A stretch of 64,000 bases of DNA from an uncultured Crocinitomix sp. (GTDB lineage Bacteria > Bacteroidota > Bacteroidia > Flavobacteriales_D > Crocinitomicaceae). This document shows positions 10,626-62,245 of this stretch, piece after piece. Location of the stretch: assembly GCA_964415335.1 (NCBI GenBank), contig CAYPZN010000006.1, positions 11,657 through 75,656 on the forward strand, written 5' to 3'. Numbering within the stretch: the stretch's first letter is position 1; each line of letters begins with the position of its first letter. A program made the position numbers and the translations under genes. The notes beneath the pieces were generated by a model. The model was not told where the DNA came from. It searched no databases and saw only the letters and a list, made by a program, of their open reading frames with translations.

Positions 10626-11681
10626 TTAAATAATCAGCATTGCATCTCCATAAGAGTAAAAGTTATACTTTTCTTTTACTGCTTCATCATAAGCTCTCTT
10701 CACAAAATCAAGATCAGAAAATGCAGCAACCATCATCATTAATGTTGATTGCGGTGTATGAAAATTCGTAATCATACAATTTGCAATCGAAAATTCATAA
10801 GGAGGGAAAATAAATTTATTTGTCCATCCACTAAATGGTTTAAGATATCCATCAGTAGAAACACTTGATTCGATTGCGCGCATACTTGTTGTACCTACCG
10901 CACAGATTCGTTTTTTATTTTTCTTACCATTGTTCACAACATCTGCAATTTCTTGCGTGATTTCAGCTTGTTCTGAATCCATTTTGTGTTTTGTCAAATC
11001 TTCAACATCAACACTTCTGAATGTTCCTAAACCAACGTGTAGTGTTAGTTCTGCAAAATCAACTCCTTTAATTTCAAGACGTTTTAGTAACTCACGACTA
11101 AAGTGTAAACCTGCAGTTGGGGCAGCAACAGCTCCCTCTTTTTTTGCATAAATTGTCTGATAACGCTCTTCATCTTCTGGAACAACATCTCTCAATCCTT
11201 TAATGTAAGGAGGAATCGGTGTTTCTCCAAGTTGAGTTATTTTTTGCTTAAATTCTTCATAAGAACCATCAAATAGAAATCGGATTGTTCTACCTCTAGA
11301 GGTTGTATTATCAATTACTTCAGCCACTAAAGAATCATCCTCAGTAAAATAAAGTTTATTTCCTATTCTGATTTTACGTGCTGGATCTACTAAAACGTCC
11401 CAAAGTAAACTTTCTCTATTAAGTTCTCGCAATAAAAACACTTCAATTCTTGCTCCTGTTTTTTCTTTATTTCCATAAAGTCTTGCAGGAAAAACCTTTG
11501 TATTATTCATTATCAAAACATCCCCTTCATCAAAATAGTCTAAAACATCTTTAAATTGCTTGTGTTCAATCGTTTGTTTTTCACGATCTAAGACCATCAA
11601 TCGCGATTCATCTCTATTTTCATTTGGATGCTGTGCAATTAGATCTTCGGGTAGTTCAAAATTAAATGCTGATAATTTCAT
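10626..11681 (-). CDS. queA: S-adenosylmethionine:tRNA ribosyltransferase-isomerase
   Basis: 351-aa [34 protein letters not shown]..., ...[13 protein letters not shown]..., ...[11 protein letters not shown]...YSYGDAMLI are classic QueA blocks. Confidence 0.93.
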
Positions 11682-47853: not shown

Positions 47854-48144
47854 TTATACAAGTCTATTGTTCTTTTGAGGTTTCCCCCTTTGTCTTCTTC
47901 GAGCATTCTTTGCTGCTCGTTTCATTCTTTTACGAGTTGCCTTATCTTGATTACGCCACGTTTTTCTTCGGCTTCTCTTTTGTCTTTTGTAAGTACTCTT
48001 TACTTGTTTATTTCTCCCCCCTTTGTTTCCTGACTTAACACTCTTCGCTCCTTTATCTTGCACAAAGCCAACTTGAGGTGTCACAACAAGGGATACAATA
48101 ATTATTAGTAATTTCGTTATTAAAGTACGTAACAGATTAATCAT
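47854..48144 (-). CDS. Possible small, extremely basic exported protein
   Basis: 96-aa ORF. The N-terminus is hydrophobic (LITKLLIIIVSLVVTPQVGFVQ). By my count, 29 of the last 67 residues are K or R. Its start codon overlaps the divergent ATG at 48143, so whether it is a real gene is uncertain. Confidence 0.3.
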   Translation of the reverse strand: MINLLRTLITKLLIIIVSLVVTPQVGFVQDKGAKSVKSGNKGGRNKQVKSTYKRQKRSRRKTWRNQDKATRKRMKRAAKNARRRQRGKPQKNNRLV

Positions 48145-48577
48145 GCAACAAATATATTTAAGATACTTTTTAATATCTACACTTTTAACAACTTTCTTAT
48201 TAACATCTTGTGAAGAACGGAACTATCCTATTCCTAACCTGCCTGTTAACAGAACATTAAACCTTGATTTGCCCGCATATGTGGCACTTAATTCTCCAGG
48301 AGGATACGCATATGTTAATGGAGGATCGAGAGGAATAGTCGTTTATCGTAATTTCGACGAGTTTATCGCTTTGGATCGACATTCAACAATTAATTCTGAT
48401 ATGGAATGTGCTGTAGTTGACGTTAATCCTGACAATCCATTTGAACTTATTGATACCTGCTCTAATACAACATACAGCATCCTTACTGGAGTTGTTTTAA
48501 GCGGATCTGCTCAGTTTGCATTAAGACGCTATAATGCACAATGGGACGGGGCTTTCACCGTCAATATTATAAACTAA
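48143..48577 (+). CDS. Hypothetical lipoprotein
   Basis: 144-aa ORF. Signal and lipobox LLTTFLLTSCEE. Small beta-rich domain; no family assigned. Confidence 0.55.
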   Translation: MQQIYLRYFLISTLLTTFLLTSCEERNYPIPNLPVNRTLNLDLPAYVALNSPGGYAYVNGGSRGIVVYRNFDEFIALDRHSTINSDMECAVVDVNPDNPFELIDTCSNTTYSILTGVVLSGSAQFALRRYNAQWDGAFTVNIIN

Positions 48578-50021: not shown

Positions 50022-50642
50022 TTGAATTTTGAAATTAAAAACATCATTAATGAGAATGATTTAGAAATCAAACTTCTCAACTATCAAAATCATTCCATTG
50101 ATAAATTAAATCTCAACATTCTTACAAAGAATGAACTCAAAAAACTTAATTCGTTTAAAAGTAAAAAAAGAAAATTAGAGTTCTTTTTCACAAGAATACT
50201 ATGGCAAAAATTTGGCAAAGGCATAACGATTGAATACAATGAAAATGGGAAACCAATTTTATCCATGGGCTACATTAGTATCTCTCATTCAAAGAACACT
50301 ATTGCCATTGGTTTTTCTGACAAGGAAAAGATTGGTTTGGATATCGAACATTATAATTCAAAAATTAACCGAATTAAAGAAAAATTCTTGTCTCGACAAG
50401 AACTGGACTCATTTGACTTGACAAATACAGAAACAATTACAACACTTTGGAGTGTAAAAGAGGCTACATATAAATTGGTTGATATTCCTGGGTTAAGTTA
50501 CAAAGATTCTATTAAAGTGACAGATATTGGTGAAATCAACCGTGTACAGTTAATTACCAAAAATAAATCCACTTTTTTTTCGTTTAGAAGGATCGTATTT
50601 AAGGATTTTATTTTGACTCATTGCGACAGCTCTCAAAGCTAG
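50022..50642 (+). CDS. 4'-phosphopantetheinyl transferase (Sfp-type)
   Basis: 206-aa ORF with a TTG start. ...NGKPILSMGYISISHSKNTIAIGFS..IGLDIE... and ...WSVKEATYKL are the PPTase motif blocks. Confidence 0.72.
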   Translation: MNFEIKNIINENDLEIKLLNYQNHSIDKLNLNILTKNELKKLNSFKSKKRKLEFFFTRILWQKFGKGITIEYNENGKPILSMGYISISHSKNTIAIGFSDKEKIGLDIEHYNSKINRIKEKFLSRQELDSFDLTNTETITTLWSVKEATYKLVDIPGLSYKDSIKVTDIGEINRVQLITKNKSTFFSFRRIVFKDFILTHCDSSQS

Positions 50643-50762
50643 CGATCTAATTATCAAATAATTAAGAATTCATTAAATTTACTTAACTTTGTTAGTTAGC
50701 GTTTAAATTGTCATTTTCTGTGTTGATTCTCGTCTATTTAAATGCATTTGATTTTATAATTT

Positions 50763-51992
50763 ATGAATAAAGTTTTACGATTTGCATTCTTAGCGGTATT
50801 AGTTTTCTCAGTTAATCCCGAAATATATGCAGGAAGATCATGGTACCAAAAAGCTTCTGTTGGTGGTGATGGCAGACATAGATCAACCGCCTTTTCAATT
50901 GGGAATAAAGGTTACTATGGAGGTGGTCATATTAATTCAGGATCTCTTATAACTTATCAAGACTATTGGGAATATGATCCCGCTACAAATTCTTGGACTC
51001 AAATTGCTGATTATGGAGGTGGGCAAAGGTATCATGCAACAGGTTTTACGATTGGTAAAGTAGCCTATGTTGGTTGCGGTGAAAATGGCACACATGATTA
51101 TACCAATGATATTTGGAAATATGTTCCGGAAGTTAACACATGGTTTCCTATTGCGGATTTTCCTGGTGTTCCAAGAAGAGGAGCCGCGGCCTTTGTCATT
51201 GATGATATCGCTTATTTTGGAACAGGGCAATGCGAAGACTGTGAAGAAGGATACGAAATTGATTTTTTCAAATATGACCCTGTAGAAGATCTTTGGACAC
51301 CCATCTCAGACTTTATCGGTAATTCGCGAAGTGCATCTGTTTGCTTTGCTTATGATGGAAAAGGTTATCTTGGAACTGGACATAAAGTCGGAGAAGCCCT
51401 TAATGATTTTTACATGTACGATCCTCTAATTGATGAGTGGTTTGTAAAAACAAGTGTTGGAGGATCTATACGTCAAGAAGCAATTGGTTTTTGTATTGAT
51501 GGAAAAGGATATATTGGAACTGGTGATGATAATTTAGGTACTGATTTTAAAGACATGTGGGAATATGATTTTGATGCAGACACATGGACTCAGGTAGAAG
51601 ATTTTAAAGGTCAAAAAAGACGCTATGCTGTTAACTTTATCATAAATGACGTTGTATATGTTGGTGGTGGAACTGACGGTACTAACTTTAAAGATTTTTG
51701 GGCATTTGCTCCTACTTTATCAATAGACGAACAAAAACAGGGTGAATTTAACTTTTCGCTTTATCCCAACCCTTCAAATGATATTATTACGGTTTCTGTA
51801 AACTTACCCTCTTCCGTTTCACAAAATATCTCTTTATCCATTTCTGACATTTCAGGAAGAATCATTCAAAACGTTCCCTTTAATAATGAAACCTTTACAC
51901 TTCATAAAAACGATTTTGAAAAAGGTATTTATTTTTTGAACGTGAGTGTAGAAAATCAGCTATTAAACAGTTATAAATTCATCTTTAATTAG
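50763..51992 (+). CDS. Kelch-repeat beta-propeller protein with a T9SS type-A C-terminal domain
   Basis: 409-aa ORF with a signal peptide. Six or more kelch-like blades recur (..GYYGGG...D.WEYDP..N.W..I.DF.G..R..A..F...). Tail FSLYPNPSNDIITVSV...FEKGIYFLNVSV. Confidence 0.8.
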   Translation: MNKVLRFAFLAVLVFSVNPEIYAGRSWYQKASVGGDGRHRSTAFSIGNKGYYGGGHINSGSLITYQDYWEYDPATNSWTQIADYGGGQRYHATGFTIGKVAYVGCGENGTHDYTNDIWKYVPEVNTWFPIADFPGVPRRGAAAFVIDDIAYFGTGQCEDCEEGYEIDFFKYDPVEDLWTPISDFIGNSRSASVCFAYDGKGYLGTGHKVGEALNDFYMYDPLIDEWFVKTSVGGSIRQEAIGFCIDGKGYIGTGDDNLGTDFKDMWEYDFDADTWTQVEDFKGQKRRYAVNFIINDVVYVGGGTDGTNFKDFWAFAPTLSIDEQKQGEFNFSLYPNPSNDIITVSVNLPSSVSQNISLSISDISGRIIQNVPFNNETFTLHKNDFEKGIYFLNVSVENQLLNSYKFIFN

Positions 51993-52732
51993 TGGATGAT
52001 TCGTTTTATAACATATTAATAAGTAATGAACGAAATGTTGCCATTTTAGTTGATCCAGATAAGAAAAATGAGACTGAAGACCTCATTCCTTTAGTTGAAA
52101 GAATCAACCTCTTAAGTCCATCTGCAATATTTATAGGTGGTAGCACAGTTAATTCACAAGATTTTAAACATTGTATTACAAAAGTTAGAGAGCTAACAAG
52201 TACTCCAATAGTACTATTTCCAGGTTCTCACCTGCAGATTGATGATCAAGCTGATAGTATATTATTTCTTTCTCTTATTTCAGGTAGAAACCCAGATTTT
52301 TTAATTGGTCACCAAGTAGAGGCGGCGCATATCTTAAAGAAAATGGATTTAGAAGTAATTCCTACAGGATATATGTTAATTGATGGTGGAAAAACATCTG
52401 CGGTTTCCTATGTTAGTCAAACCACGCCCATTCCGTCCGATCAAACAGTTATTGCAGTAAAAACAGCTATCGCCGGTGAAATGCTTGGTTTAAAAGCCAT
52501 TTTTATGGATGCTGGAAGTGGGGCTAAAAAAAGTATTCCAACACAACTCATTTCTGATGTAAAAGAAAGCATTTCCATTCCACTAATTGTTGGTGGAGGA
52601 ATTCGTACAATTGACGAAATAGATGCTGCCTTTAATTCTGGGGCCAATTTGGTTGTAATTGGAAATAAAATTGAAGAAAACATTGATTTTTTACTCGACA
52701 TAAAGAATTCAATAAAAAAAACGAACAAATGA
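51992..52732 (+). CDS. Geranylgeranylglyceryl/heptaprenylglyceryl phosphate synthase family protein (GGGPS/PcrB)
   Basis: 246-aa ORF with a GTG start overlapping the preceding stop (TAGTG). Blocks are IFIGGST, VLFPGS, LSLISGRNP, IFMDAGSGA, LIVGGGIRT and VVIGN, which fit the TIM-barrel PcrB/GGGPS pattern. Confidence 0.8.
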   Translation: MDDSFYNILISNERNVAILVDPDKKNETEDLIPLVERINLLSPSAIFIGGSTVNSQDFKHCITKVRELTSTPIVLFPGSHLQIDDQADSILFLSLISGRNPDFLIGHQVEAAHILKKMDLEVIPTGYMLIDGGKTSAVSYVSQTTPIPSDQTVIAVKTAIAGEMLGLKAIFMDAGSGAKKSIPTQLISDVKESISIPLIVGGGIRTIDEIDAAFNSGANLVVIGNKIEENIDFLLDIKNSIKKTNK

Positions 52733-55347
52733 TAAGAAAAATAGCCCTTTTCCTACTTATTGCATTATTGCAAACATCATTATTTGCACAAGTATTGACT
52801 ACTCCTACTTCTAATAGAGAAGCTGGAATTTACACAGATGCAATTTTACTTAGTTTATTCCATGAAGAGGAAGATGTATCCATTTTTTATACTTTGAATG
52901 GAGATGAACCAACGGTAGCCGATTTTTTATATACAGGCCCAATAACACTTGATAACATTCCTGAAGGAGCAAGCCCACTTTCGTTAATTCCGACAAATCC
53001 TTCTTTAGTATTTCCATTCGGTAGTTATAGCACGGTAAGAGCCAATTCAAGGGGTTGGGTTCCTCCGTATAGCCCCGGAAAAAAAGTAAATGTTGTCCGT
53101 TACCGTGCATTTAAATCAGGATTTGCGCCGAGTAAAACGATTACTCAAACATTTGTTGTTGATCCTAGCGGTGCCGATTTGTACACAATGCCTATTATTT
53201 CAATAGCAATGGATTATTCGGACATTTTTTCGGACGAATCTGGAATTTATGTTTATGGAAATCACCCTGATGGCAATTATGAACAGAAAGGAGCTTTATG
53301 GGAGCGGATTATGAGCATAGAGTTTTTTGATAAAAACGGTGACTTGGTGCTTGCTCAAAACGCACGAACTAGAATGCATGGTGGAGGAAGTAGACATGCT
53401 CCAAAAAAAACATTTCGAATTTATGCAGAAACAGAAGGGAAAAAGAATTTTAAGTATAACTTTTTTGATGACACGGAACTCAGTCAATTTAAGCGAATTT
53501 TATTAAAGGCTGGAGGGCATAGACCTGATTGTTTTCCTAGAGATGATTTAGCGAATATGATTACTAAAGGGTTGGATGTCGAGCAGCAACATTTTAAACA
53601 TGTTATTGTTTTCGTCAACGGAGAGTACTGGGGAATACATTCAATAAAAGAACGATTGGATAAATACATGATTCAAAATCTTTACGGAATAGATGATGAT
53701 GAGATAACACTCTTAGATCAAGAATTTGATGTACAAAATGGTCATGCTGTAGATAGCATGAAAATGAAAAATTTAGAAAGCTTTATCATTGTTAATGATA
53801 TGGCAATTCCTTCAAATTACAAATACGTGACAGATCGAATTGATGTTGACAATTATATTGATTACATGTGTGCTGAAATATTTTTAAGTAATGAAGATTG
53901 GGTGTATTCAAATGTTAATATTTGGCGTAGAACTGGAGAACTTTCTCCTGAAGAAGGACCAGGATACGACGGAAAATTTAGATGGGCACTTTATGATTTA
54001 GATGGTGCCTTTGGCGGTTCTTGTGCAAACGCTTTTTTCACTGCAACAACGCTAAACAAAGCAACTATTGAAGGTGGTACTTTTGCTTCTTACACACGTT
54101 TTTTTAGAGGTCTTTTAGAAAACATTGGTTTTAGAGAACAATTCATCCGAAGAATGGATGATTTGAGTAATTCATGGTTTCGCCCAGAAGTAGTTCAGCA
54201 AAAAATGGATTCGATTTACAATTTATTAACTCCAGAAATTCTAGAAAATGCAAATAGATGGCGTTATCCAACTTTCTCTTCTTCATTAGAAGATCGATAT
54301 GAAGAAGAACCGTCAATTGACCGTTGGAATGATCTATGGGATTTACTTCACAATTTTGCCAAAAACAGAGCAAGAAAGGTCAACGAGCAAATTATGGATA
54401 AATGGGGTTATTCGGACACTAGTAATTTATCAATTGATGTAAATGATCCATCAATGGGAAGAGTCAAAGTAAACTCTATTTTAATTAATGAAAATCTTCC
54501 AGGTGTAACAGAAAGTTTATATCCTTGGTCAGGTTATTATATGAATGATGTGCAATTACCACTTATTGCTAAGCCTCTTCCTGGCTATCGATTTGTAGAA
54601 TGGTTAGAAACTGGAGAAACAAATGACACTGTATTTTGGGATCCGACTGACGACATCAGCTATACGGCAATTTTTGAAGAAGAAGATGATTATCAACCGA
54701 TTCTGATTAATGAAGTTATGCTGTCCAACAAAGGTTTTGATTTTGTTGACAATTTTAACGACAATGACGATTGGCTTGAGCTTTATAATCCAAATAATTA
54801 CCCTGTTGATTTATCTGCTTCAAAATTAGTTAGAGATGGCATTGAATGGAATATTCCAAATGGTTTTGTCATCCCAGCAAACGAGTATATGGTTTTTTGG
54901 CATGATAGCGAGACCTATCAAGGAAGTAATCATGTCAATTTCAACCTAAAAAATGGCATTGACACCGTATTTTTAGTTTCTCCAACTGGAATAGAAATTG
55001 ATCAAATTCGTTATCCAATAACTCCTTCTGACAACTCATTTGGAAGGTTTCCGAATGGAAGTGAAACGTTTTCGATTTTTTCTCATCCAACACCAGTAGG
55101 AAATAATGATTTAGCAAGTTTAAATGAAGATGTTGTAATCCTAACACCATTGGTTGCTTATCCCAATCCTTCCTCTTCGAATATCCAATTGAATAAAACT
55201 GTAAGTTTCACGCTCTATGACCTTAAAGGTGCTGTTGTGATGAAGTCTTCTTTACAGAATAATTCTTTTGATGTCTCTCTGCTTAAAAAAGGCATTTATA
55301 TTTTATTAACTGCGGAGGATGAAACTCTTAAAATTGTTGTAAATTAA
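52729..55347 (+). CDS. CotH-family protein with a lamin-tail domain and a T9SS type-A C-terminal domain
   Basis: 872-aa ORF whose start overlaps the GGGPS stop (ATGA). CotH-like core (..KKTFRIYAE...FKRILLKAGGHRPD...HVIVFVNGEYWGIHSIKERLD..). LTD (ILINEVMLSN...DDWLELYNPNNYPVDLS). Tail LVAYPNPSSSNIQLN...LKKGIYILLTA. Confidence 0.75.
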   Translation: MIRKIALFLLIALLQTSLFAQVLTTPTSNREAGIYTDAILLSLFHEEEDVSIFYTLNGDEPTVADFLYTGPITLDNIPEGASPLSLIPTNPSLVFPFGSYSTVRANSRGWVPPYSPGKKVNVVRYRAFKSGFAPSKTITQTFVVDPSGADLYTMPIISIAMDYSDIFSDESGIYVYGNHPDGNYEQKGALWERIMSIEFFDKNGDLVLAQNARTRMHGGGSRHAPKKTFRIYAETEGKKNFKYNFFDDTELSQFKRILLKAGGHRPDCFPRDDLANMITKGLDVEQQHFKHVIVFVNGEYWGIHSIKERLDKYMIQNLYGIDDDEITLLDQEFDVQNGHAVDSMKMKNLESFIIVNDMAIPSNYKYVTDRIDVDNYIDYMCAEIFLSNEDWVYSNVNIWRRTGELSPEEGPGYDGKFRWALYDLDGAFGGSCANAFFTATTLNKATIEGGTFASYTRFFRGLLENIGFREQFIRRMDDLSNSWFRPEVVQQKMDSIYNLLTPEILENANRWRYPTFSSSLEDRYEEEPSIDRWNDLWDLLHNFAKNRARKVNEQIMDKWGYSDTSNLSIDVNDPSMGRVKVNSILINENLPGVTESLYPWSGYYMNDVQLPLIAKPLPGYRFVEWLETGETNDTVFWDPTDDISYTAIFEEEDDYQPILINEVMLSNKGFDFVDNFNDNDDWLELYNPNNYPVDLSASKLVRDGIEWNIPNGFVIPANEYMVFWHDSETYQGSNHVNFNLKNGIDTVFLVSPTGIEIDQIRYPITPSDNSFGRFPNGSETFSIFSHPTPVGNNDLASLNEDVVILTPLVAYPNPSSSNIQLNKTVSFTLYDLKGAVVMKSSLQNNSFDVSLLKKGIYILLTAEDETLKIVVN

Positions 55348-55348
55348 T

Positions 55349-57664
55349 ATGAGAATTCTCTTTCTAATTTCATCCTTCTTGATTTCCTTTTTAGGCTTTG
55401 GTCAAGATTTTTCAGAACTCATTAAGGTGGTAGCTTCTGACCGTGGCCTATCCGATAATTTTGGTTATTCTGTTGATGTTTCTGGAAATTATGCAATTGT
55501 GGGTGCTTATAGTGATGATTTTGGCACTTCTAACCCGAATATGGGTTCTGCTTATATTTTTGAAAAAGAAGGAATCGCCGACTGGGAATTGGTTCAAAAA
55601 ATCAATAATTCTGATCAAGATGATTACGATCGTTTTGGATGGTCAGTAGCAATAGACGGAAACAGAATTGTTGTAGGAGCCTATGCCGAAGATCATGATG
55701 AATTTGATTCAGGCATTCTTTCCAGAGCAGGATCTGCTTATGTTTTTGAACGTAATTTAAGTGGGGTATGGAATCAAACTCAAAAAATAGTCGCTTCTGA
55801 CCGAGATATAGATGATGAATTTGGTTGGTCTGTAGATATTTCAGGAACTACCATTGCAATTGGTGCACATCAAGAAAATCATGATGAAGACGGTTTAAAT
55901 TTTATTTATCATTCTGGTTCGGTATACCTTTTTGATTTATCTGGCGGAACATGGAGTCAAACTCAAAAAATCGTGGCAAGTGATCGATCTGCTGACATTG
56001 ACTTTCCAGACGGTGCTAGTGGCGAAGATGTATCTGATCTTTTTGGAGGAGACTTATCTCTTTCAGAAGATTACTTAATTGTAGGAGCACATCATCATGA
56101 TTATGACGCATCTGGAGGAGCTCCTTTAAATGAGGCTGGCGCGGCATATATTTTTGAACGAACGGGTAGTACTTGGACGGAGGTTGAAAAACTTCAAAAT
56201 TCTGATCGCGCAACGGAAGATCGTTTCGGTTTTTCTGTCGCTATCAGTGGAAACTATGCTTTAGTTGGTGCGCATACCGAAGACCATAACTTAACTGGAG
56301 GGGGAACTTTGAATAATGCTGGATCTGTTTATGCTTTCGAACGCAATTTAGCAGGAAATTGGAATCAAATCCAAAAAGTTTTACCAGATGATAGGCATAC
56401 AGGAGACCGTTTTGGATGGGATATTGCAATGGACGATACATTAGCTATTATTGGCGCTTATCGAGCAAATACGGATGAATTTAATACAGCCTCTCTTTCT
56501 GATGCTGGAGCAGCTTACGTTTTTTACTATAATACGACTGATGATTGGATGCAACTAAACAAATTAGATGCTTCTGATCGAAAAGCTGAAGATGAACTTG
56601 GCGTTAGTGTTTCAATATCTGGCAACGAAATATTAATTGGTGCTTATCAACAAAGTTTTAATGTTTCTGGAACAGATGAATTGAGTGAAGCTGGAGCTGC
56701 ATATTTTTATGGTCAAGAAGAATGTGTATCTTCTTCAAGTGCTCAAACACTAACCCTTTGTTCAGGACAATCTGTTATTGTAGGTCCTTTTGAGCATACA
56801 ACAACAGGAATTTATACAGATATTCTTTTTTCTGAAAGTGGTTGTGACAGTACAGTTACAACTAATTTAACTATCATTCCACCTCCTACTTCTTCTCAAG
56901 AAATCGAAAGATGCTTTGGGCATCCATTTACCATTGGATCATCTTCTCATACTGAATCTGGAGTTTACTCTGATACCATCACTGCAATTTCCGGCTGTGA
57001 TAGTATTGTTATTACAACATTAACCTTTTCACCTGAAAATTCTATTATACAAGATAAAGCTATTTGTTGGGGAGAAACTTATACCATTGGTTCCTCTACC
57101 TACAGTTTCCCTGGTACATATACGGATGTAATTACTTCATCAACGTTATGTGATTGCACAATTACAACCAATTTAACGGTTCAACTTCCAATCGATAATT
57201 CAATTAGTCAAGATTTAAATTTACTAAAAGCTGGCGCAGTAGACGCCTCTTATCAATGGATCAAATGTGATCCGTTTCAAGAGATTATAGGAACTGGAGC
57301 AAACGAACAAACTTACCTTGCCCCTCTGGAAGGTGCCTATGCTGTAATTGTAACTGATGGAGCTTGTGTAGACACTTCTTCTTGTGTTCTTGTTACTACA
57401 TTAGAAACTGCAGAAGAAACTTTTGATCAATTATTCAATGTCTATCCAAATCCGAATAAGGGAGATTTTACGTTAGTCTATAAATTAAACGATATTCCAG
57501 ATTTTAATGCTGTGCTTAGAAACAGTGTTGGTCAAATCGTGCATGAAGAAAACATTAACAGTTATGCAAATCATATAAATGTAAACAACCTTCCTAAAGG
57601 AGTTTACGTATTAAGTGTTAGGAATTTGGAGTCTGTCCGTGTAAAAAGATTAGTTATAAACTAA
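55349..57664 (+). CDS. FG-GAP-like beta-propeller repeat protein with 3 Cys-bracketed modules and a T9SS type-A C-terminal domain
   Basis: 771-aa ORF starting 1 nt after the CotH stop. Seven or more repeats follow the pattern D.FG.SV.I.G...(I/V)(V/I)GA...D.......AGSAY(V/I)FE......W...QK(I/L).ASDR. Three C.G.....G.S.(Y/H)...G.Y.D.....(S)GCD..(V/I).T.LT modules follow. Tail FNVYPNPNKGDFTL...LPKGVYVLSV. Confidence 0.8.
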   Translation: MRILFLISSFLISFLGFGQDFSELIKVVASDRGLSDNFGYSVDVSGNYAIVGAYSDDFGTSNPNMGSAYIFEKEGIADWELVQKINNSDQDDYDRFGWSVAIDGNRIVVGAYAEDHDEFDSGILSRAGSAYVFERNLSGVWNQTQKIVASDRDIDDEFGWSVDISGTTIAIGAHQENHDEDGLNFIYHSGSVYLFDLSGGTWSQTQKIVASDRSADIDFPDGASGEDVSDLFGGDLSLSEDYLIVGAHHHDYDASGGAPLNEAGAAYIFERTGSTWTEVEKLQNSDRATEDRFGFSVAISGNYALVGAHTEDHNLTGGGTLNNAGSVYAFERNLAGNWNQIQKVLPDDRHTGDRFGWDIAMDDTLAIIGAYRANTDEFNTASLSDAGAAYVFYYNTTDDWMQLNKLDASDRKAEDELGVSVSISGNEILIGAYQQSFNVSGTDELSEAGAAYFYGQEECVSSSSAQTLTLCSGQSVIVGPFEHTTTGIYTDILFSESGCDSTVTTNLTIIPPPTSSQEIERCFGHPFTIGSSSHTESGVYSDTITAISGCDSIVITTLTFSPENSIIQDKAICWGETYTIGSSTYSFPGTYTDVITSSTLCDCTITTNLTVQLPIDNSISQDLNLLKAGAVDASYQWIKCDPFQEIIGTGANEQTYLAPLEGAYAVIVTDGACVDTSSCVLVTTLETAEETFDQLFNVYPNPNKGDFTLVYKLNDIPDFNAVLRNSVGQIVHEENINSYANHINVNNLPKGVYVLSVRNLESVRVKRLVIN

Positions 57665-57742
57665 TCTAGATACTAGACTTACTTTAAATAAATTTGTATT
57701 TAAGCTATTTACGACAATTATTAAATTGTAGAATTTATAAAA

Positions 57743-60229
57743 ATGAAAAGATTACTTTTTTTCGCATTATCGTTCTCTATTGCGCATACGTATGCTCAAA
57801 CGCATGAAGAAATTTTTAAAGCAGCGGGATTTGACCGTGAAAGTGAAGACCGTTTTGGTTATTCAGTAGCTGTATCTGAAGATTACGCTATTATTGGTGC
57901 TTATGCTGATGATTTTGGTGGATCAAATCCAAATATGGGTTCTGCTTATATTTTTGAAAAAACAGGATTAGCAGATTGGGAATTTGTTCAAAAAATAAAC
58001 AATTCTGATCAAGATGATTATGATCGTTTCGGATGGTCTGTTTCTATTAACGGAAACTATGCTGTTATTGGAGCTGTTGGAGAAGATCATGATTTAGATG
58101 ATGACAACTCAATGTCTAAAGCAGGGTCTGCCTATATTTTTCAAAGAGATGTAGATGGTACTTGGACTGAAATGCAAAAAATTATTGCTTCTGATCGAGA
58201 TGAAGATGATGAATTTGGATGGTCTGTAGATATTGATGGAAATACACTTGTTGTTGGAGCCCATCAAGAAGACCACAATGTTTCTGGAGCAGGTTTTATT
58301 CATAATGCAGGAGCTATTTATGTTTTTGACCTTTCAGATGGCATGTGGAGTGAAACACAAAAAATTGTCGCTTCTGATCGTTCAGCTGACGGCGTTCACC
58401 CAATGGGAAGACCTGATCCTGATGATGAAGATTTTTCTGATTTATTTGGAGGAAGCGTTGCTATTTCAGGAGATTATATCATTGCTGGATCACATATGCA
58501 TGATTATGGCCCATTTGGTGTTGGAACAGGTTACTCATGGAATGCAGGTACTGCTTATGTTTTTGAACGTTCTGCTGGAACTTGGACTGAAGTTGAAAAA
58601 TTACTTCCGACTATTAGAAATCCATATGATCGATTTGGATATGTAGTGGATGTAGATGGTGAAAATATTATTGTTGGTGTTTATACAGAAGATGAAAATG
58701 AAACTGAAGGAGCTTCATTGATGAATGCGGGAGGTGCTTATGTTTTTGAACGTAACATGAGTGGAGATTGGCTTCAAACTCAAAAATTAGATGCAAGTGA
58801 CCGAACTACAGGTGATCATTTTGGTCGTGACGTAGCAATTGATGGTGATTATATTATCATTGGTGCTGAGCAAGAAGATTTAGATGAGAATTCAGAAAAT
58901 AGTTTAAGCAATGCCGGTGGCGCATACATTTTTGAAAAAGAAATGTCTGGAACCTGGACTGAAGTTAGAAAAATTGATGCTTCAGATCGTGACGCTATGG
59001 ATTTGTTTGGTGAATCTGTTGCCATTTCTGAAAATACCATTATCGTTGGCGCTTGGCAGCAAGATTTAAATGAATCAAGTGAGGATTTCTTGGAAGATGC
59101 TGGAGCAGCTTATTTCTATAGTCCTTTTGAATGTATGACTTCTTTTATGGAAGAAGATGTCACCATTTGTTTTGGTGATGCTTACAGTATTGGCGAAAGT
59201 ACATATACTACTGCAGGAACTTATGAAGATATTATTTCAGATGAAGATGGGTGTGATGTTGTTGTTACAACGAACCTAAGTATTCTTTCAGAAATTGCAG
59301 AAAGTCAGACGGTATCCATTTGTTCAGGAACAAGTTATTCTATTGGAACAAGTACTTATGACGAAACAGGAACGTATGAAGATGTTTTAATTTCAACTGT
59401 TTCAGGTTGCGATAGTACTGTAACTACAATTTTAACTGTTGAAGATCCTATTACATTTGAGCAAGACATTACGTTGTGCTTTGGTGAAATTTATGAAATT
59501 GGACTTTCGTCTTATGATGAAACCGGCGTTTATGAAGACTTATTAGTTACTGATGATGGTTGTGATAGTATTGTTCAAACAAACTTGACTATCCGAGAAG
59601 AAATAATCAATGAACAGGATATAAATTTATGTGAAGGACAATCTGTAGAAGTAGGAAGTTCAACATATGACGAAGCTGGTGTGTATGAAGATTTATTGAC
59701 TTCTGAAGCTGGCTGTGATAGTATGGTTATCACAACTGTTGAAATTCTTCCAGCAATTGATGTCAGTGTAACATTTGAAGATGTTATCACACTTTCTGGT
59801 GGAGACCCAACTGTTGAAACAAGCACCTATCAATGGATTAAATGTGATCCATTTGAAGAAATTGATGGGGCGACTGATCAAACCTTTACAGCAATAGAAA
59901 ATGGTTCTTATGCGGTTATAATAACAGATGGTTGTACGGACACTTCTGATTGTGTTACAATCGAAGCAGTTGGGATTGATGAATTTGAAGCAAATATCAT
60001 AGGTATTTATCCAAATCCTAATAACGGTCAGTTTACTGTAGAATTAGATGAATTTAAAGGAGAACCGGTTTCGATTCAAGTTATAAATAATCTTGGTGCA
60101 TTGGTATATGATTCTAGATTAACGCAATCGAAAACATTAATTGATCTAAACAACATCTCTGACGGGATTTATATTTTACAAATTATTGATGGAGAAAAGA
60201 CCTATAAAGAACGCCTTGTTATTCATTAA
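57743..60229 (+). CDS. FG-GAP-like beta-propeller repeat protein (tandem paralog) with 4 Cys-bracketed modules and a T9SS type-A C-terminal domain
   Basis: 828-aa ORF with the same architecture as 55349-57664. Stretches of near-identical nucleotides occur, for example AATATGGGTTCTGCTTATATTTTTGAAAAA in both genes. Tail IGIYPNPNNGQFTVEL...ISDGIYILQI. Confidence 0.8.
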   Translation: MKRLLFFALSFSIAHTYAQTHEEIFKAAGFDRESEDRFGYSVAVSEDYAIIGAYADDFGGSNPNMGSAYIFEKTGLADWEFVQKINNSDQDDYDRFGWSVSINGNYAVIGAVGEDHDLDDDNSMSKAGSAYIFQRDVDGTWTEMQKIIASDRDEDDEFGWSVDIDGNTLVVGAHQEDHNVSGAGFIHNAGAIYVFDLSDGMWSETQKIVASDRSADGVHPMGRPDPDDEDFSDLFGGSVAISGDYIIAGSHMHDYGPFGVGTGYSWNAGTAYVFERSAGTWTEVEKLLPTIRNPYDRFGYVVDVDGENIIVGVYTEDENETEGASLMNAGGAYVFERNMSGDWLQTQKLDASDRTTGDHFGRDVAIDGDYIIIGAEQEDLDENSENSLSNAGGAYIFEKEMSGTWTEVRKIDASDRDAMDLFGESVAISENTIIVGAWQQDLNESSEDFLEDAGAAYFYSPFECMTSFMEEDVTICFGDAYSIGESTYTTAGTYEDIISDEDGCDVVVTTNLSILSEIAESQTVSICSGTSYSIGTSTYDETGTYEDVLISTVSGCDSTVTTILTVEDPITFEQDITLCFGEIYEIGLSSYDETGVYEDLLVTDDGCDSIVQTNLTIREEIINEQDINLCEGQSVEVGSSTYDEAGVYEDLLTSEAGCDSMVITTVEILPAIDVSVTFEDVITLSGGDPTVETSTYQWIKCDPFEEIDGATDQTFTAIENGSYAVIITDGCTDTSDCVTIEAVGIDEFEANIIGIYPNPNNGQFTVELDEFKGEPVSIQVINNLGALVYDSRLTQSKTLIDLNNISDGIYILQIIDGEKTYKERLVIH

Positions 60230-60248: not shown

Positions 60249-61361
60249 TTATTCTTGCAACATTTGATCCCAGCCTTTAAAAATAGGCTCGTAGCCTTGT
60301 GCTCTAATTGCTTGAATAAAGTCTGAAGTTGAGCGCTTGTCATGAATCTCAAATTGCTCAAGATTAGTGTTTGGATTCGCATACCCGCCTGGGTCCGTCT
60401 TTGAATCTGCACTAATGGATGTAATACCAAGCTTTATAACATTGTTGCGAAATGTTTCTGACTCTCTGGTTGACATTGAAAGTTCAATCTCTTGATTAAA
60501 AATTCGGTAAGCACAAATCAATTGAACCAATTGTTTATCCGTCATCACAGACTTTAATTCTACTCCTCCTGCACAAGGTCTTAAACGCGGAAAAGAAATT
60601 GAATAGTTCGCTTTCCAATATTTTTTTTCTAAATAATCCAAGTGCGCAGCAGCAAAGAAAGAATCTGTCCTCCAATCTTCCAATCCGATCAAAACACCAA
60701 CACCCATCTTATGAATTCCAGCACGGCCCAATCGATCATGCGTATCTAATCGATAATTAAAATTGGACTTCTTTCCCTTGGGGTGATGTTTTTTATAATT
60801 GTCACGGTTATAGGTTTCTTGATAAACTAATACCGTATTCAATCCTGTTTCGATTAATCGTTCATATTCGTTTTGTTCTAACGGTTGTACTTCAATTGAA
60901 ATATGAGAAAAATGTGGTTTAATCAAACGAATGGCATTTTCAATATAATCTACGCCTACTGTTTTGTTTGCTTCTCCTGTTACGATTAAAACATGATCGT
61001 ACCCGTATGATTTAAGCACCTCGACTTCGGCCAAAATTTCTTTATCTGTTAATGTTTTTCTTGGAATTTTGACGTCTAAACTAAATCCACAATACGTACA
61101 TATATTTTGGCATTCGTTCGATAAATATAATGGTGCATACATCTGAATTGTTTTTCCAAAACGTTGTTGCGTCAATGCATGACTTTTTTGTGCCATTTCC
61201 TCCAAAAAAGGTTCCGCGGCTGGTGAAATCAAAGCCATAAAATCATTGAGTGTAGGCTGTTTTGAATCCATTGCTATTTGCACATCATTCGCTGTCATCT
61301 CATAAATCCGTTTTGAGATGTCATTCCATTTATATTTTTCGAATTTCTTTAAGTAACTCAT
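60249..61361 (-). CDS. thiH: 2-iminoacetate synthase ThiH (radical SAM)
   Basis: 370-aa ORF. Radical-SAM cluster motif ECQNICTYCGF. Its position directly after thiG and its length fit ThiH. Confidence 0.88.
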   Translation of the reverse strand: MSYLKKFEKYKWNDISKRIYEMTANDVQIAMDSKQPTLNDFMALISPAAEPFLEEMAQKSHALTQQRFGKTIQMYAPLYLSNECQNICTYCGFSLDVKIPRKTLTDKEILAEVEVLKSYGYDHVLIVTGEANKTVGVDYIENAIRLIKPHFSHISIEVQPLEQNEYERLIETGLNTVLVYQETYNRDNYKKHHPKGKKSNFNYRLDTHDRLGRAGIHKMGVGVLIGLEDWRTDSFFAAAHLDYLEKKYWKANYSISFPRLRPCAGGVELKSVMTDKQLVQLICAYRIFNQEIELSMSTRESETFRNNVIKLGITSISADSKTDPGGYANPNTNLEQFEIHDKRSTSDFIQAIRAQGYEPIFKGWDQMLQE

Positions 61362-61367
61362 GTCGTT

Positions 61368-62132
61368 TTAGCTTAAAAAATTCGTTAAAGGACTGCTTGC
61401 TTCTGCCTGATTTGAAATTGATCCAAGTTGCGCTTCATATGCTTTTCTTCCTGCAATTACTGCAAGTTTAAATGCTTCTGCCATAGCAATTGGATTAGGA
61501 GAAACAGCTATTGCTGTATTAACCAAAACAGCGTCTGCTCCTAACTCCATAGCATAAGCCGCATGAGATGGAGCTCCAATACCTGCATCAACAATAACAG
61601 GAACAGTTGCTTGCTCAATTATAATCTGTAAAAAATCTTCTGTTTTTATTCCTTTATTACTCCCAATAGGCGACCCTAAAGGCATTACAGCTTGAGTTCC
61701 CACTTCCTGTAATCTTTTTGAAAGAACTGGATCAGCATGAATGTATGGCAAAACAACAAAACCTAATTTCACCAATTCTTCAGCTGCTAATAATGTTTCG
61801 ATAGGATCGGGCATAAGGTATTTGGGATCGGGATGAATCTCCAACTTTATCCAGTTTGTTTCAAGTGCTTCTCTAGCTAATTGCGCTGCAAAAATAGCTT
61901 CTTTTGCTGATCTAACCCCTGAGGTATTTGGTAGCCAATTGAATTGATCAAGGCTCAAATGTTTTAAAATATCGTCATTTTCATCTTTAACATCTACACG
62001 TTTCAATGCCATTGTCACCAATCCAGATCCAGAAGCTTTGAGCGCTTTCCCCATTTCTTCGTTCGACTTGAATTTTCCAGTACCTGTAAATAAACGCGAA
62101 TCAAATTCGCGTTCTGCAATCTTTAATTTCAT
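61368..62132 (-). CDS. thiG: Thiazole synthase ThiG
   Basis: The ATG at 62130-62132 gives [21 protein letters not shown].... Other blocks are ...LPNTSG..., [20 protein letters not shown] and [13 protein letters not shown]. The track ORF starts at a TTG 7 codons upstream. Confidence 0.92.
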
Positions 62133-62245
62133 CCGTCTATAATTTATTTCCAATGGTCAGATGGAACTCGCAAATCACACCCGTTCCGTTATCTATCAAA
62201 CGTATTGTCATACTCATTTTATTTTAATTCTTGAAAAGTGCTTAG

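Follow-up and report, generated by a model that had tools for sequence, protein, structure and literature searches.

Archaeal-type geranylgeranylglyceryl phosphate synthases (GGGPS) of the PcrB family are also encoded by Bacteroidota, and here we analyzed one such gene that lies among genes for cargo proteins of a type IX secretion system (T9SS) in an uncultured Crocinitomix sp. The gene is found at positions 51992 to 52732 of a stretch of 64,000 nucleotides from contig CAYPZN010000006.1 (GenBank assembly GCA_964415335.1, contig positions 11,657 to 75,656, forward strand), here named the window, to which all coordinates refer unless a contig or locus is given. The closest described system is the group IIb GGGPS of Flavobacterium johnsoniae (FjGGGPS), whose structure (PDB 4jej; Peterhoff et al. 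2014, as cited there) is described in excerpts of the review PMC9385802. The window protein belongs to the same family and group, aligns with FjGGGPS over residues 12 to 233, and retains both the Ile at the limiter position and the glycine-rich blocks for binding of glycerol-1-phosphate (G1P). It differs in carrying FMD instead of YLE, in an Asn (VIGN) instead of a Thr (IGT) in the last phosphate-binding block, and in the location of its gene between T9SS cargo genes. The physiological role is as obscure for the F. johnsoniae enzyme as for that of the window; an excerpt of PMC7888582 calls the role of these lipids in Bacteroidetes "still unknown," in line with an earlier note on this locus, which had described product and role in Bacteroidota as unresolved.

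Other known systems resemble the locus in part. PcrB of Bacillus subtilis is a group Ib heptaprenylglyceryl phosphate (HepGP) synthase that gives rise to a minor, non-bulk ether lipid (PMC9385802 and PMC9179154, both in excerpt). In contrast to the window enzyme, it belongs to group I, uses a C35 substrate, and has other gene neighbors, and the lipid it makes is dephosphorylated and acetylated. The window protein reaches only 38.4 bits (cutoff, 260) with NF003197, the model for HepGP synthase. Gene sets for GGGPS and digeranylgeranylglyceryl phosphate synthase (DGGGPS) occur in "Candidatus Cloacimonetes" and other Fibrobacteres-Chlorobi-Bacteroidetes (FCB) group bacteria (Villanueva et al. 2021, PMC7852524, in excerpt). 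Likewise, the window genome is that of an FCB-group bacterium with an archaeal-type enzyme for the first ether bond, and it also encodes a DGGGPS-like UbiA prenyltransferase, but here the two genes are unlinked. With regard to secretion, T9SS cargo of Porphyromonas gingivalis is anchored by the sortase PorU to anionic lipopolysaccharide (LPS), not to an ether lipid. The four cargo proteins encoded around the window GGGPS share the type A C-terminal domain with this cargo, and the genome also encodes PorU. The earlier note had proposed that the tight coupling of the genes links the ether lipid to biogenesis, anchoring, or modification of these surface proteins; an anchor of this kind would be unlike the LPS anchor of P. 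gingivalis, and PorU-bearing families without GGGPS are common. We consider it likely that genes inserted on either side drew a core group II GGGPS gene into a cargo operon, and that this core gene shares the expression of its neighbors and not their function.

In the window, GGGPS is part of a run of six consecutive plus-strand genes (50022 to 60229) for a 4'-phosphopantetheinyl transferase (PPTase), a Kelch protein, GGGPS, a CotH protein, and two FG-GAP proteins. The TAG stop codon (51990 to 51992) of the Kelch gene (50763 to 51992) and the GTG start codon of GGGPS (51992 to 51994) have one G in common, giving a 1-nt overlap of the sequence TAGTG. At the other end, the ATG (52729 to 52731) of the CotH gene (52729 to 55347) and the TGA stop codon of GGGPS (52730 to 52732) form a 4-nt overlap, ATGA, and a single base at 55348 separates the CotH stop codon from the ATG of the first FG-GAP gene (55349 to 57664). 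Upon rereading of the sequence, the four-gene run and its junctions were thus exactly as described in the earlier note, whose span ended at 57664. Beyond that span and separated by 78 nt lies the second FG-GAP gene (57743 to 60229), a further T9SS cargo gene whose product is 45% identical to that of the first.

Among 40 genomes sampled as relatives across the order, 37 carry a GGGPS orthologue (E < 1e-40). The 8-kb flanks of 36 GGGPS loci were compared with the window proteins, and in 13 of them a Kelch gene directly precedes and a CotH gene directly follows GGGPS; FG-GAP genes come after CotH in 12 of these, and the contig of the thirteenth ends there. A fourteenth genome (G013) shows the same order divided between two small contigs, so that the order Kelch-GGGPS-CotH-FG-GAP is present in 14 of the 37 GGGPS-bearing relatives, namely 12 of 13 genomes of the same genus together with two genomes that each represent a further genus of the family. 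With start codons chosen by a custom heuristic, the gaps range from -4 to +5 nt between Kelch and GGGPS (13/13 loci), from -20 to +20 nt between GGGPS and CotH (13/13), and from -1 to +25 nt between CotH and FG-GAP (12/12). Eight of the 13 Kelch-GGGPS junctions overlap as TAATG, with an ATG start codon at the same GGGPS position. Since the gaps are kept in the relatives, the tight junctions are more than chance. Identities to the orthologues are 46 to 63% for Kelch, 53 to 68% for CotH, and 58 to 65% for GGGPS, and full-length orthologues of Kelch (at least 46% identity) and CotH (at least 53%) exist only at the GGGPS locus, in the 14 relatives; the next-best matches are paralogues (44% for Kelch, 39% for CotH). 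The Kelch-GGGPS-CotH order, whose conservation in other Bacteroidota the earlier note had suggested to check, is therefore conserved within one clade only and is missing from the other Flavobacteriales loci and the other orders examined.

The arrangement represents one evolutionary event with a single origin. In a tree of the TonB-dependent receptors, all cassette-bearing genomes (i.e., those with the cargo genes around GGGPS) group together with G008, a genome of the window's genus, in one clade with a support of 100, whose sister group consists of cassette-less genomes from the same family. In the GGGPS tree, the branching agrees with taxonomy and the family clade has a support of 98. Because the 14 relatives all fall into one clade of the receptor tree, they count as one observation of maintained linkage. 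G008 has an uninterrupted PPTase-GGGPS pair, convergent thiH-thiG downstream, and no cargo genes; its position within the clade is unsettled in both trees, and loss and primary absence of the cargo genes are not separable.

GGGPS is kept in all 23 compared loci that lack orthologues of the Kelch, CotH, and FG-GAP genes. In 20 of these Flavobacteriales loci (about 15 families; L043 to L065), a PPTase gene is located directly upstream of GGGPS on the same strand, at a distance of -26 to +20 nt in 17 of the 20 adjacent pairs and with an overlap in 12. Upstream of the PPTase gene are genes for adenosylhomocysteinase and a TonB-dependent receptor, as in the window, where the PPTase gene spans 50022 to 50642 and encodes an Sfp-type enzyme (Pfam ACPS, 37.1 bits; cutoff, 25). 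The convergent genes thiH and thiG directly follow GGGPS in three genomes without cargo genes (G008, G015, and G021) and in the window come after the second FG-GAP gene (60249 to 62153, minus strand; TIGR02351, 548 bits; Pfam ThiG, 355.7 bits). Set against these flanking genes, the window locus appears to be the common block interrupted by a single gene upstream of GGGPS and by three genes downstream.

A second sample of 80 named loci agrees with this picture. The PPTase gene is directly upstream of GGGPS in 28 (Fluviicola, Brumimicrobium, and many unclassified Flavobacteriales), 1.2 to 2.9 kb upstream in 4, and elsewhere in 1; no PPTase match was obtained in 39, mostly from other orders by their titles, and 5 had too little upstream DNA to judge. 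In the remaining three a Kelch gene intervenes between PPTase and GGGPS; all three are titled Crocinitomix, and two of them are the same contigs as those of G004 and G010. Other inserts between PPTase and GGGPS, seen in four named loci, are an EamA transporter gene (two loci), genes for an MBOAT acyltransferase and an unknown protein, and an opposite-strand NHL propeller gene. In G016 (L066:970-4665), PPTase and GGGPS are separated by a gene for a 1,231-residue SprB-repeat protein that carries a T9SS C-terminal domain; the gaps are ~76 nt, and the GGGPS of this genome forms a long branch outside its family in the GGGPS tree. This is apparently a second cargo insertion at the same spot, independent of the Kelch insertion. 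The PPTase/GGGPS gap is thus a recurrent insertion point, at which T9SS cargo landed at least twice.

Expression signals were examined with the motif TAnnTTTG, which we take to be the consensus of the Bacteroidota -7 promoter element. The 120-nt spacer between the PPTase and Kelch genes (50643 to 50762, plus strand) holds a match, TAACTTTG at 50684 to 50691, which marks the probable promoter of the operon. With this consensus, the window and 10 of the 13 related loci (i.e., 11 of 14) have a match 72 to 85 nt before the Kelch start, and none was found in the last 200 nt of the Kelch gene in any of the 14 loci, at a background of 0.78 matches per kb on this strand. In cassette-less loci, the last 200 nt of the PPTase gene contain a match in 12 of 21 cases. 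GGGPS appears to have no promoter of its own, and the operon is a real gene arrangement that probably forms a transcription unit. As far as motifs can tell, these positions are consistent with a former GGGPS promoter within the PPTase gene and a present dependence on the Kelch promoter. A further match at 57689, inside the 78-nt spacer, suggests that the second FG-GAP gene may have its own promoter. A sigma-70 promoter scan gave 34 sites, fewer than the shuffle mean of 41.6; its model is unfit for Bacteroidota and the scan was set aside.

On the reading we prefer, GGGPS is a vertically inherited, near-universal Flavobacteriales gene that belonged to an old block of TonB-dependent receptor, adenosylhomocysteinase, PPTase, and GGGPS genes; it usually overlaps PPTase, and thiH-thiG come next in several of the relatives. 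A Kelch gene would then have entered between PPTase and GGGPS, and CotH and FG-GAP genes between GGGPS and thiH, in the common ancestor of a clade that consists of the window's genus together with two sister genera and whose named members are titled Crocinitomix. From then on, GGGPS would be transcribed from the promoter before Kelch and translated by reinitiation at the Kelch stop codon. Such operon hitchhiking would couple expression only, and the lipid enzyme would do the same job as in the cargo-less relatives.

The genes around GGGPS encode T9SS cargo. The Kelch beta-propeller protein matches Pfam Kelch families; the CotH kinase-family protein matches Pfam CotH (137.9 bits) and LTD (59.8 bits) and includes CHB_HEX_C, Fn3_assoc, and lamin-tail domains; and the FG-GAP proteins reach 302.5 bits (first protein, seven repeats) and 291 bits (second) with Pfam FG-GAP_2. 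At their extreme C termini, the Kelch, CotH, first FG-GAP, and second FG-GAP proteins score 44.5, 38.4, 44.9, and 53.3 bits with Por_Secre_tail (cutoff, 27) and 39.2, 33.7, 43.5, and 48.2 bits with TIGR04183 (cutoff, 23). All four N termini have a short basic and then a hydrophobic stretch and are signal-like by eye. Of the earlier description of the neighbors as signal peptide and T9SS tail proteins, the tails are borne out by scores above cutoff, and the putative signal peptides agree with the look of the N termini. GGGPS has no T9SS C-terminal domain, and its N terminus is not signal-like by eye; the earlier note, too, had seen no signal peptide there.

Cargo of this kind is frequent in the genome, which also encodes the T9SS sortase PorU (NF033707, 1,276.6 bits; G000:C119:734-4105). 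The model of the type A C-terminal domain of T9SS cargo (TIGR04183) gave 118 matches in 4.05 Mb, and a profile of the domain built from this genome matched 135 of 3,522 open reading frames (ORFs), so that T9SS cargo makes up ~3 to 4% of the genes. Among these matches are tandem paralogues of Kelch (C15:30504-32248) and of CotH (C68:1504-5250). From the Kelch gene up to and including the second FG-GAP gene, the GC content stays even at 0.34 to 0.37; with no compositional signal, a recent horizontal acquisition of the cargo cassette was rejected.

Judged by its family-model scores, the gene at 51992 to 52732 is a genuine member of the GGGPS family, of the known bacterial group II. The protein exceeds the curated cutoffs of Pfam PcrB PF01884 (117.8 bits; cutoff, 23.9) and of three NCBIfam GGGPS models, i.e., NF003198 (259.6 bits; cutoff, 247), TIGR01769 GGGP (167.9 bits; cutoff, 161.55), and TIGR01768 (151 bits; cutoff, 113.25). 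The earlier GGGPS/PcrB assignment is thereby upheld, and all four motif blocks on which it was based (IFIGGST, IFMDAGSGA, LIVGGGIRT, and VVIGN) were found in the translation. An unrelated TIM-barrel family, which that note had named as a possible better match, scores far below the GGGPS models (His_biosynth as the next family, only 38 bits). The closest solved chain is 4jej_A (E = 3.6e-61), which we take to be the FjGGGPS structure, followed by 4mm1_A (1.1e-40) and HisF (5.5e-08).

Much of the active site is retained. D25 of the Methanothermobacter thermautotrophicus enzyme (MtGGGPS) is described as the Mg2+/diphosphate-binding Asp (PMC9385802, in excerpt), and this residue is kept: VDPDK (residues 20 to 24) aligns with IDPEE of 4mm1, and its DP is shared by all of the block's most frequent listed variants across 117 aligned Bacteroidota sequences. 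The first catalytic Tyr (Y134 of MtGGGPS) is kept as well, with PTGYML (residues 124 to 129) aligned to PMGYLV of 4mm1, and so are the glycine-rich blocks AGSGA, GGGIRT, and VVIGN for binding of the G1P phosphate. The last of these ends in Asn, as in group I, whereas group II enzymes are described as having Thr at its end (PMC9385802, excerpt). Ile83 aligns with position 90 of chain 4jej_A, and I90 of FjGGGPS is the proposed C20 chain-length limiter according to the same excerpt. By homology, the gene product is predicted to be a soluble GGGPS that would convert C20 geranylgeranyl diphosphate (GGPP) and G1P to the ether lipid precursor geranylgeranylglyceryl phosphate (GGGP).

Further candidate genes of the lipid pathway are located elsewhere in the genome. 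There are two polyprenyl synthases, one of which is of the short-chain type and closest to GGPP synthase models (255 bits, below the cutoff of 500). The DGGGPS-like UbiA prenyltransferase (C23:42272-43270, i.e., L096:10273-11271) scores 153.8 bits with NF009512, below the cutoff of 278, and its gene is followed by maf after 4 nt. In a phylum sample of 201 Bacteroidota genomes, homologues of this UbiA protein were found in 40, all within the class, and 39 of the 40 also have PcrB. Going by this distribution, UbiA would be a better candidate partner of GGGPS than any neighbor gene. A T9SS cargo gene 435 nt upstream of the UbiA gene was considered as a second lipid-cargo association and dismissed as coincidence; it is absent from the loci of all 29 relatives.

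Across the phylum sample, PcrB is present in 90 of the 201 genomes and PorU above cutoff in 145. Cross-tabulated by hand, with related genomes not being independent, PorU-bearing genomes comprise 81 with and 64 without PcrB, and those without PorU comprise 9 with and 47 without PcrB. In family f40, PorU was found in 28 of 33 genomes and GGGPS in none of the 33. Because whole families have PorU without GGGPS, the handling of T9SS cargo is not generally dependent on this lipid.

The neighbors of GGGPS also vary with the lineage. In 18 loci from other orders, the upstream gene encodes alanyl-tRNA synthetase (AlaRS) in 5 (L087, L088, L089, L092, and L095), and the downstream gene encodes an SIS_2-domain sugar-phosphate isomerase-like protein in 5 (L086, L087, L089, L091, and L092) or RsgA in 2; other neighbors varied, and no Kelch, CotH, FG-GAP, or PPTase gene lies beside GGGPS in any of the 18. 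Tight coupling to whatever lies upstream, be it PPTase, AlaRS, or Kelch, appears to be a habit of this gene and not a sign of shared function. In B. subtilis, pcrB is part of one operon with pcrA, which encodes a DNA helicase, and with ligA, a precedent within the family for operons with unrelated genes. Since GGGPS is habitually coupled to its upstream gene in the phylum, its neighbors should not be read as pathway partners.

Apart from this, the SIS protein may be worth a look as a source of glycerol phosphate, with no G1P dehydrogenase found by PF13685. One ORF of 379 residues at L080:3974-5113 (G115), directly behind gldD, encodes a GGGPS that carries a cytidine/MafB19-like deaminase domain fused to its C terminus. 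The open frames of 512 amino acids in G183 and 393 amino acids in G042 may be further GGGPS fusions.

Several findings weigh against capture without a functional link. The order and the very tight junctions were kept while the proteins diverged to 46 to 68% identity, which is compatible with selection for co-expression. Around the GGGPS genes of 117 cassette-less loci, the T9SS C-terminal domain was found in 14 of 224 adjacent ORFs, versus 21 of 723 nonadjacent ORFs, and cargo of other families adjoins GGGPS in a few lineages. Eleven of the 14 adjacent cargo ORFs represent one shared arrangement (9 of the 11 loci titled Fluviicola; e.g., L102:5991-8198), in which GGGPS is followed on the same strand, after 273 nt and so without tight coupling, by the gene for an M43 metallopeptidase that has PKD and T9SS C-terminal domains; the other three, of other cargo types, are the SprB-repeat gene of G016 and two single loci. 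When counted by sequence cluster, the excess is about 2-fold, reflects about five events, and changes with the threshold chosen for clustering. A general enrichment of cargo neighbors around GGGPS was thus not decisive, as about five events are not separable from chance, and cargo genes, besides being numerous, probably make up more than their share of mobile genes.

The enzyme itself provides two more such points. Excerpts of PMC9385802 list three strictly conserved residues of the family, including Y178 and E180 of MtGGGPS, and both of these are changed in the window protein, to Phe171 and Asp173. The codons at 52502 to 52510 (residues 171 to 173) read FMD, in place of the YLE of the enzymes from M. 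thermautotrophicus and F. johnsoniae; the second catalytic Tyr is hence absent, and the acid is kept but is one carbon shorter. Phe at the first position occurs in 34 of the 117 aligned Bacteroidota sequences, including the cargo-less G008, and the second is Asp in 112 and Glu in 5. A catalytic-site change peculiar to cassette-bearing genomes was ruled out, since the Phe and Asp variants are widespread and also present in G008. In addition, a search of the genome with PF13685 did not reveal a G1P dehydrogenase; its two matches are AroB and an alcohol dehydrogenase.

That the GGGP-derived ether lipid works with the co-transcribed T9SS cargo in the Crocinitomix clade, whether by anchoring it, by modifying it covalently, or as a membrane partner that it requires, we nevertheless regard as very unlikely. 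The maintained order and overlapping junctions in all 14 relatives that have the genes, with Kelch proteins down to 46% identity, the apparent reliance of GGGPS on the Kelch promoter, and the cargo genes of other families beside GGGPS in about four further lineages speak for such a link, and no known role of the lipid contradicts it (PMC7888582, in excerpt). However, the conserved order amounts to one event and not 14, the Kelch-GGGPS-CotH linkage does not recur in independent lineages, which have different or no cargo neighbors, and GGGPS persists in 23 relatives without these cargo genes. Moreover, 64 of the 145 PorU-bearing genomes lack GGGPS, the enzyme is predicted to be soluble and cytoplasmic while the cargo is exported, and the catalytic columns are the same in cassette-bearing genomes and in G008. 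The Kelch and CotH paralogues elsewhere in the genome are not beside lipid genes, and the candidate for the second prenyltransferase step has a cargo neighbor in only 1 of 30 loci, that of this genome. With PPTase coupled to GGGPS just as tightly elsewhere, and AlaRS, SIS, or RsgA genes next to it in other orders, the step from tight coupling to a lipid-cargo link, as drawn in the earlier note, is not supported. We found no paper linking geranylgeranylglyceryl phosphate synthase, or Crocinitomix, to type IX secretion.

The widespread PPTase-GGGPS pair raises the alternative that PPTase is the meaningful partner, for example in a carrier protein-dependent lipid step, and that the Kelch insertion merely split the two. 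The directly adjacent and mostly closely spaced pairs in 20 of 23 cassette-less loci of about 15 families, together with 28 of the 80 named loci, are in favor of this view, which we still consider unlikely. The pair was not found in the 18 loci from other orders, and several lineages tolerate unrelated genes between PPTase and GGGPS. Four genomes lacking GGGPS were searched for PPTase, and a homologue is still present, with no GGGPS next to it, in the two inspected at the locus level, G030 (where it adjoins the adenosylhomocysteinase gene) and G138. No chemistry ties the two enzyme types, and no paper was found that joins GGGPS with phosphopantetheinyl transferase in Bacteroidetes. The overlapping PPTase-GGGPS pair is the deepest linkage found and is probably also not a functional one. 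Finally, the genes might be merely adjacent and separately transcribed, with the overlaps as by-products of genome compaction that have no effect on expression. Overlaps of stop and start codons are indeed common in compact genomes, but junctions of -1, -4, and +1 nt leave no room for a promoter or terminator, and the -7 motif is missing from the end of the Kelch gene in 14 of 14 loci and kept before it in 11 of 14, which makes this explanation hardly credible. Capture of GGGPS into the cargo operon, with coupling of expression only, accordingly remains the reading we prefer.

Outside the operon, two small ORFs of 144 amino acids (48143 to 48577) and 96 amino acids (47854 to 48144) lie between the genes for the TonB-dependent receptor and adenosylhomocysteinase. 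Neither has a Pfam match, and both are kept at 58 to 79% identity across the genus, the 144-amino-acid one also across the order.

Clues to the use of GGGP in Bacteroidota are rare; a conserved operon partner would have provided one, but the clue from this locus is weak. If the lipid had nonetheless been recruited to the cargo, this would be the first physiological role for archaeal-type ether lipids in the phylum. What the locus offers is a clade in which expression of GGGPS probably depends on the promoter of a cargo gene, with G008 as a natural comparison genome that does not have the insertions.

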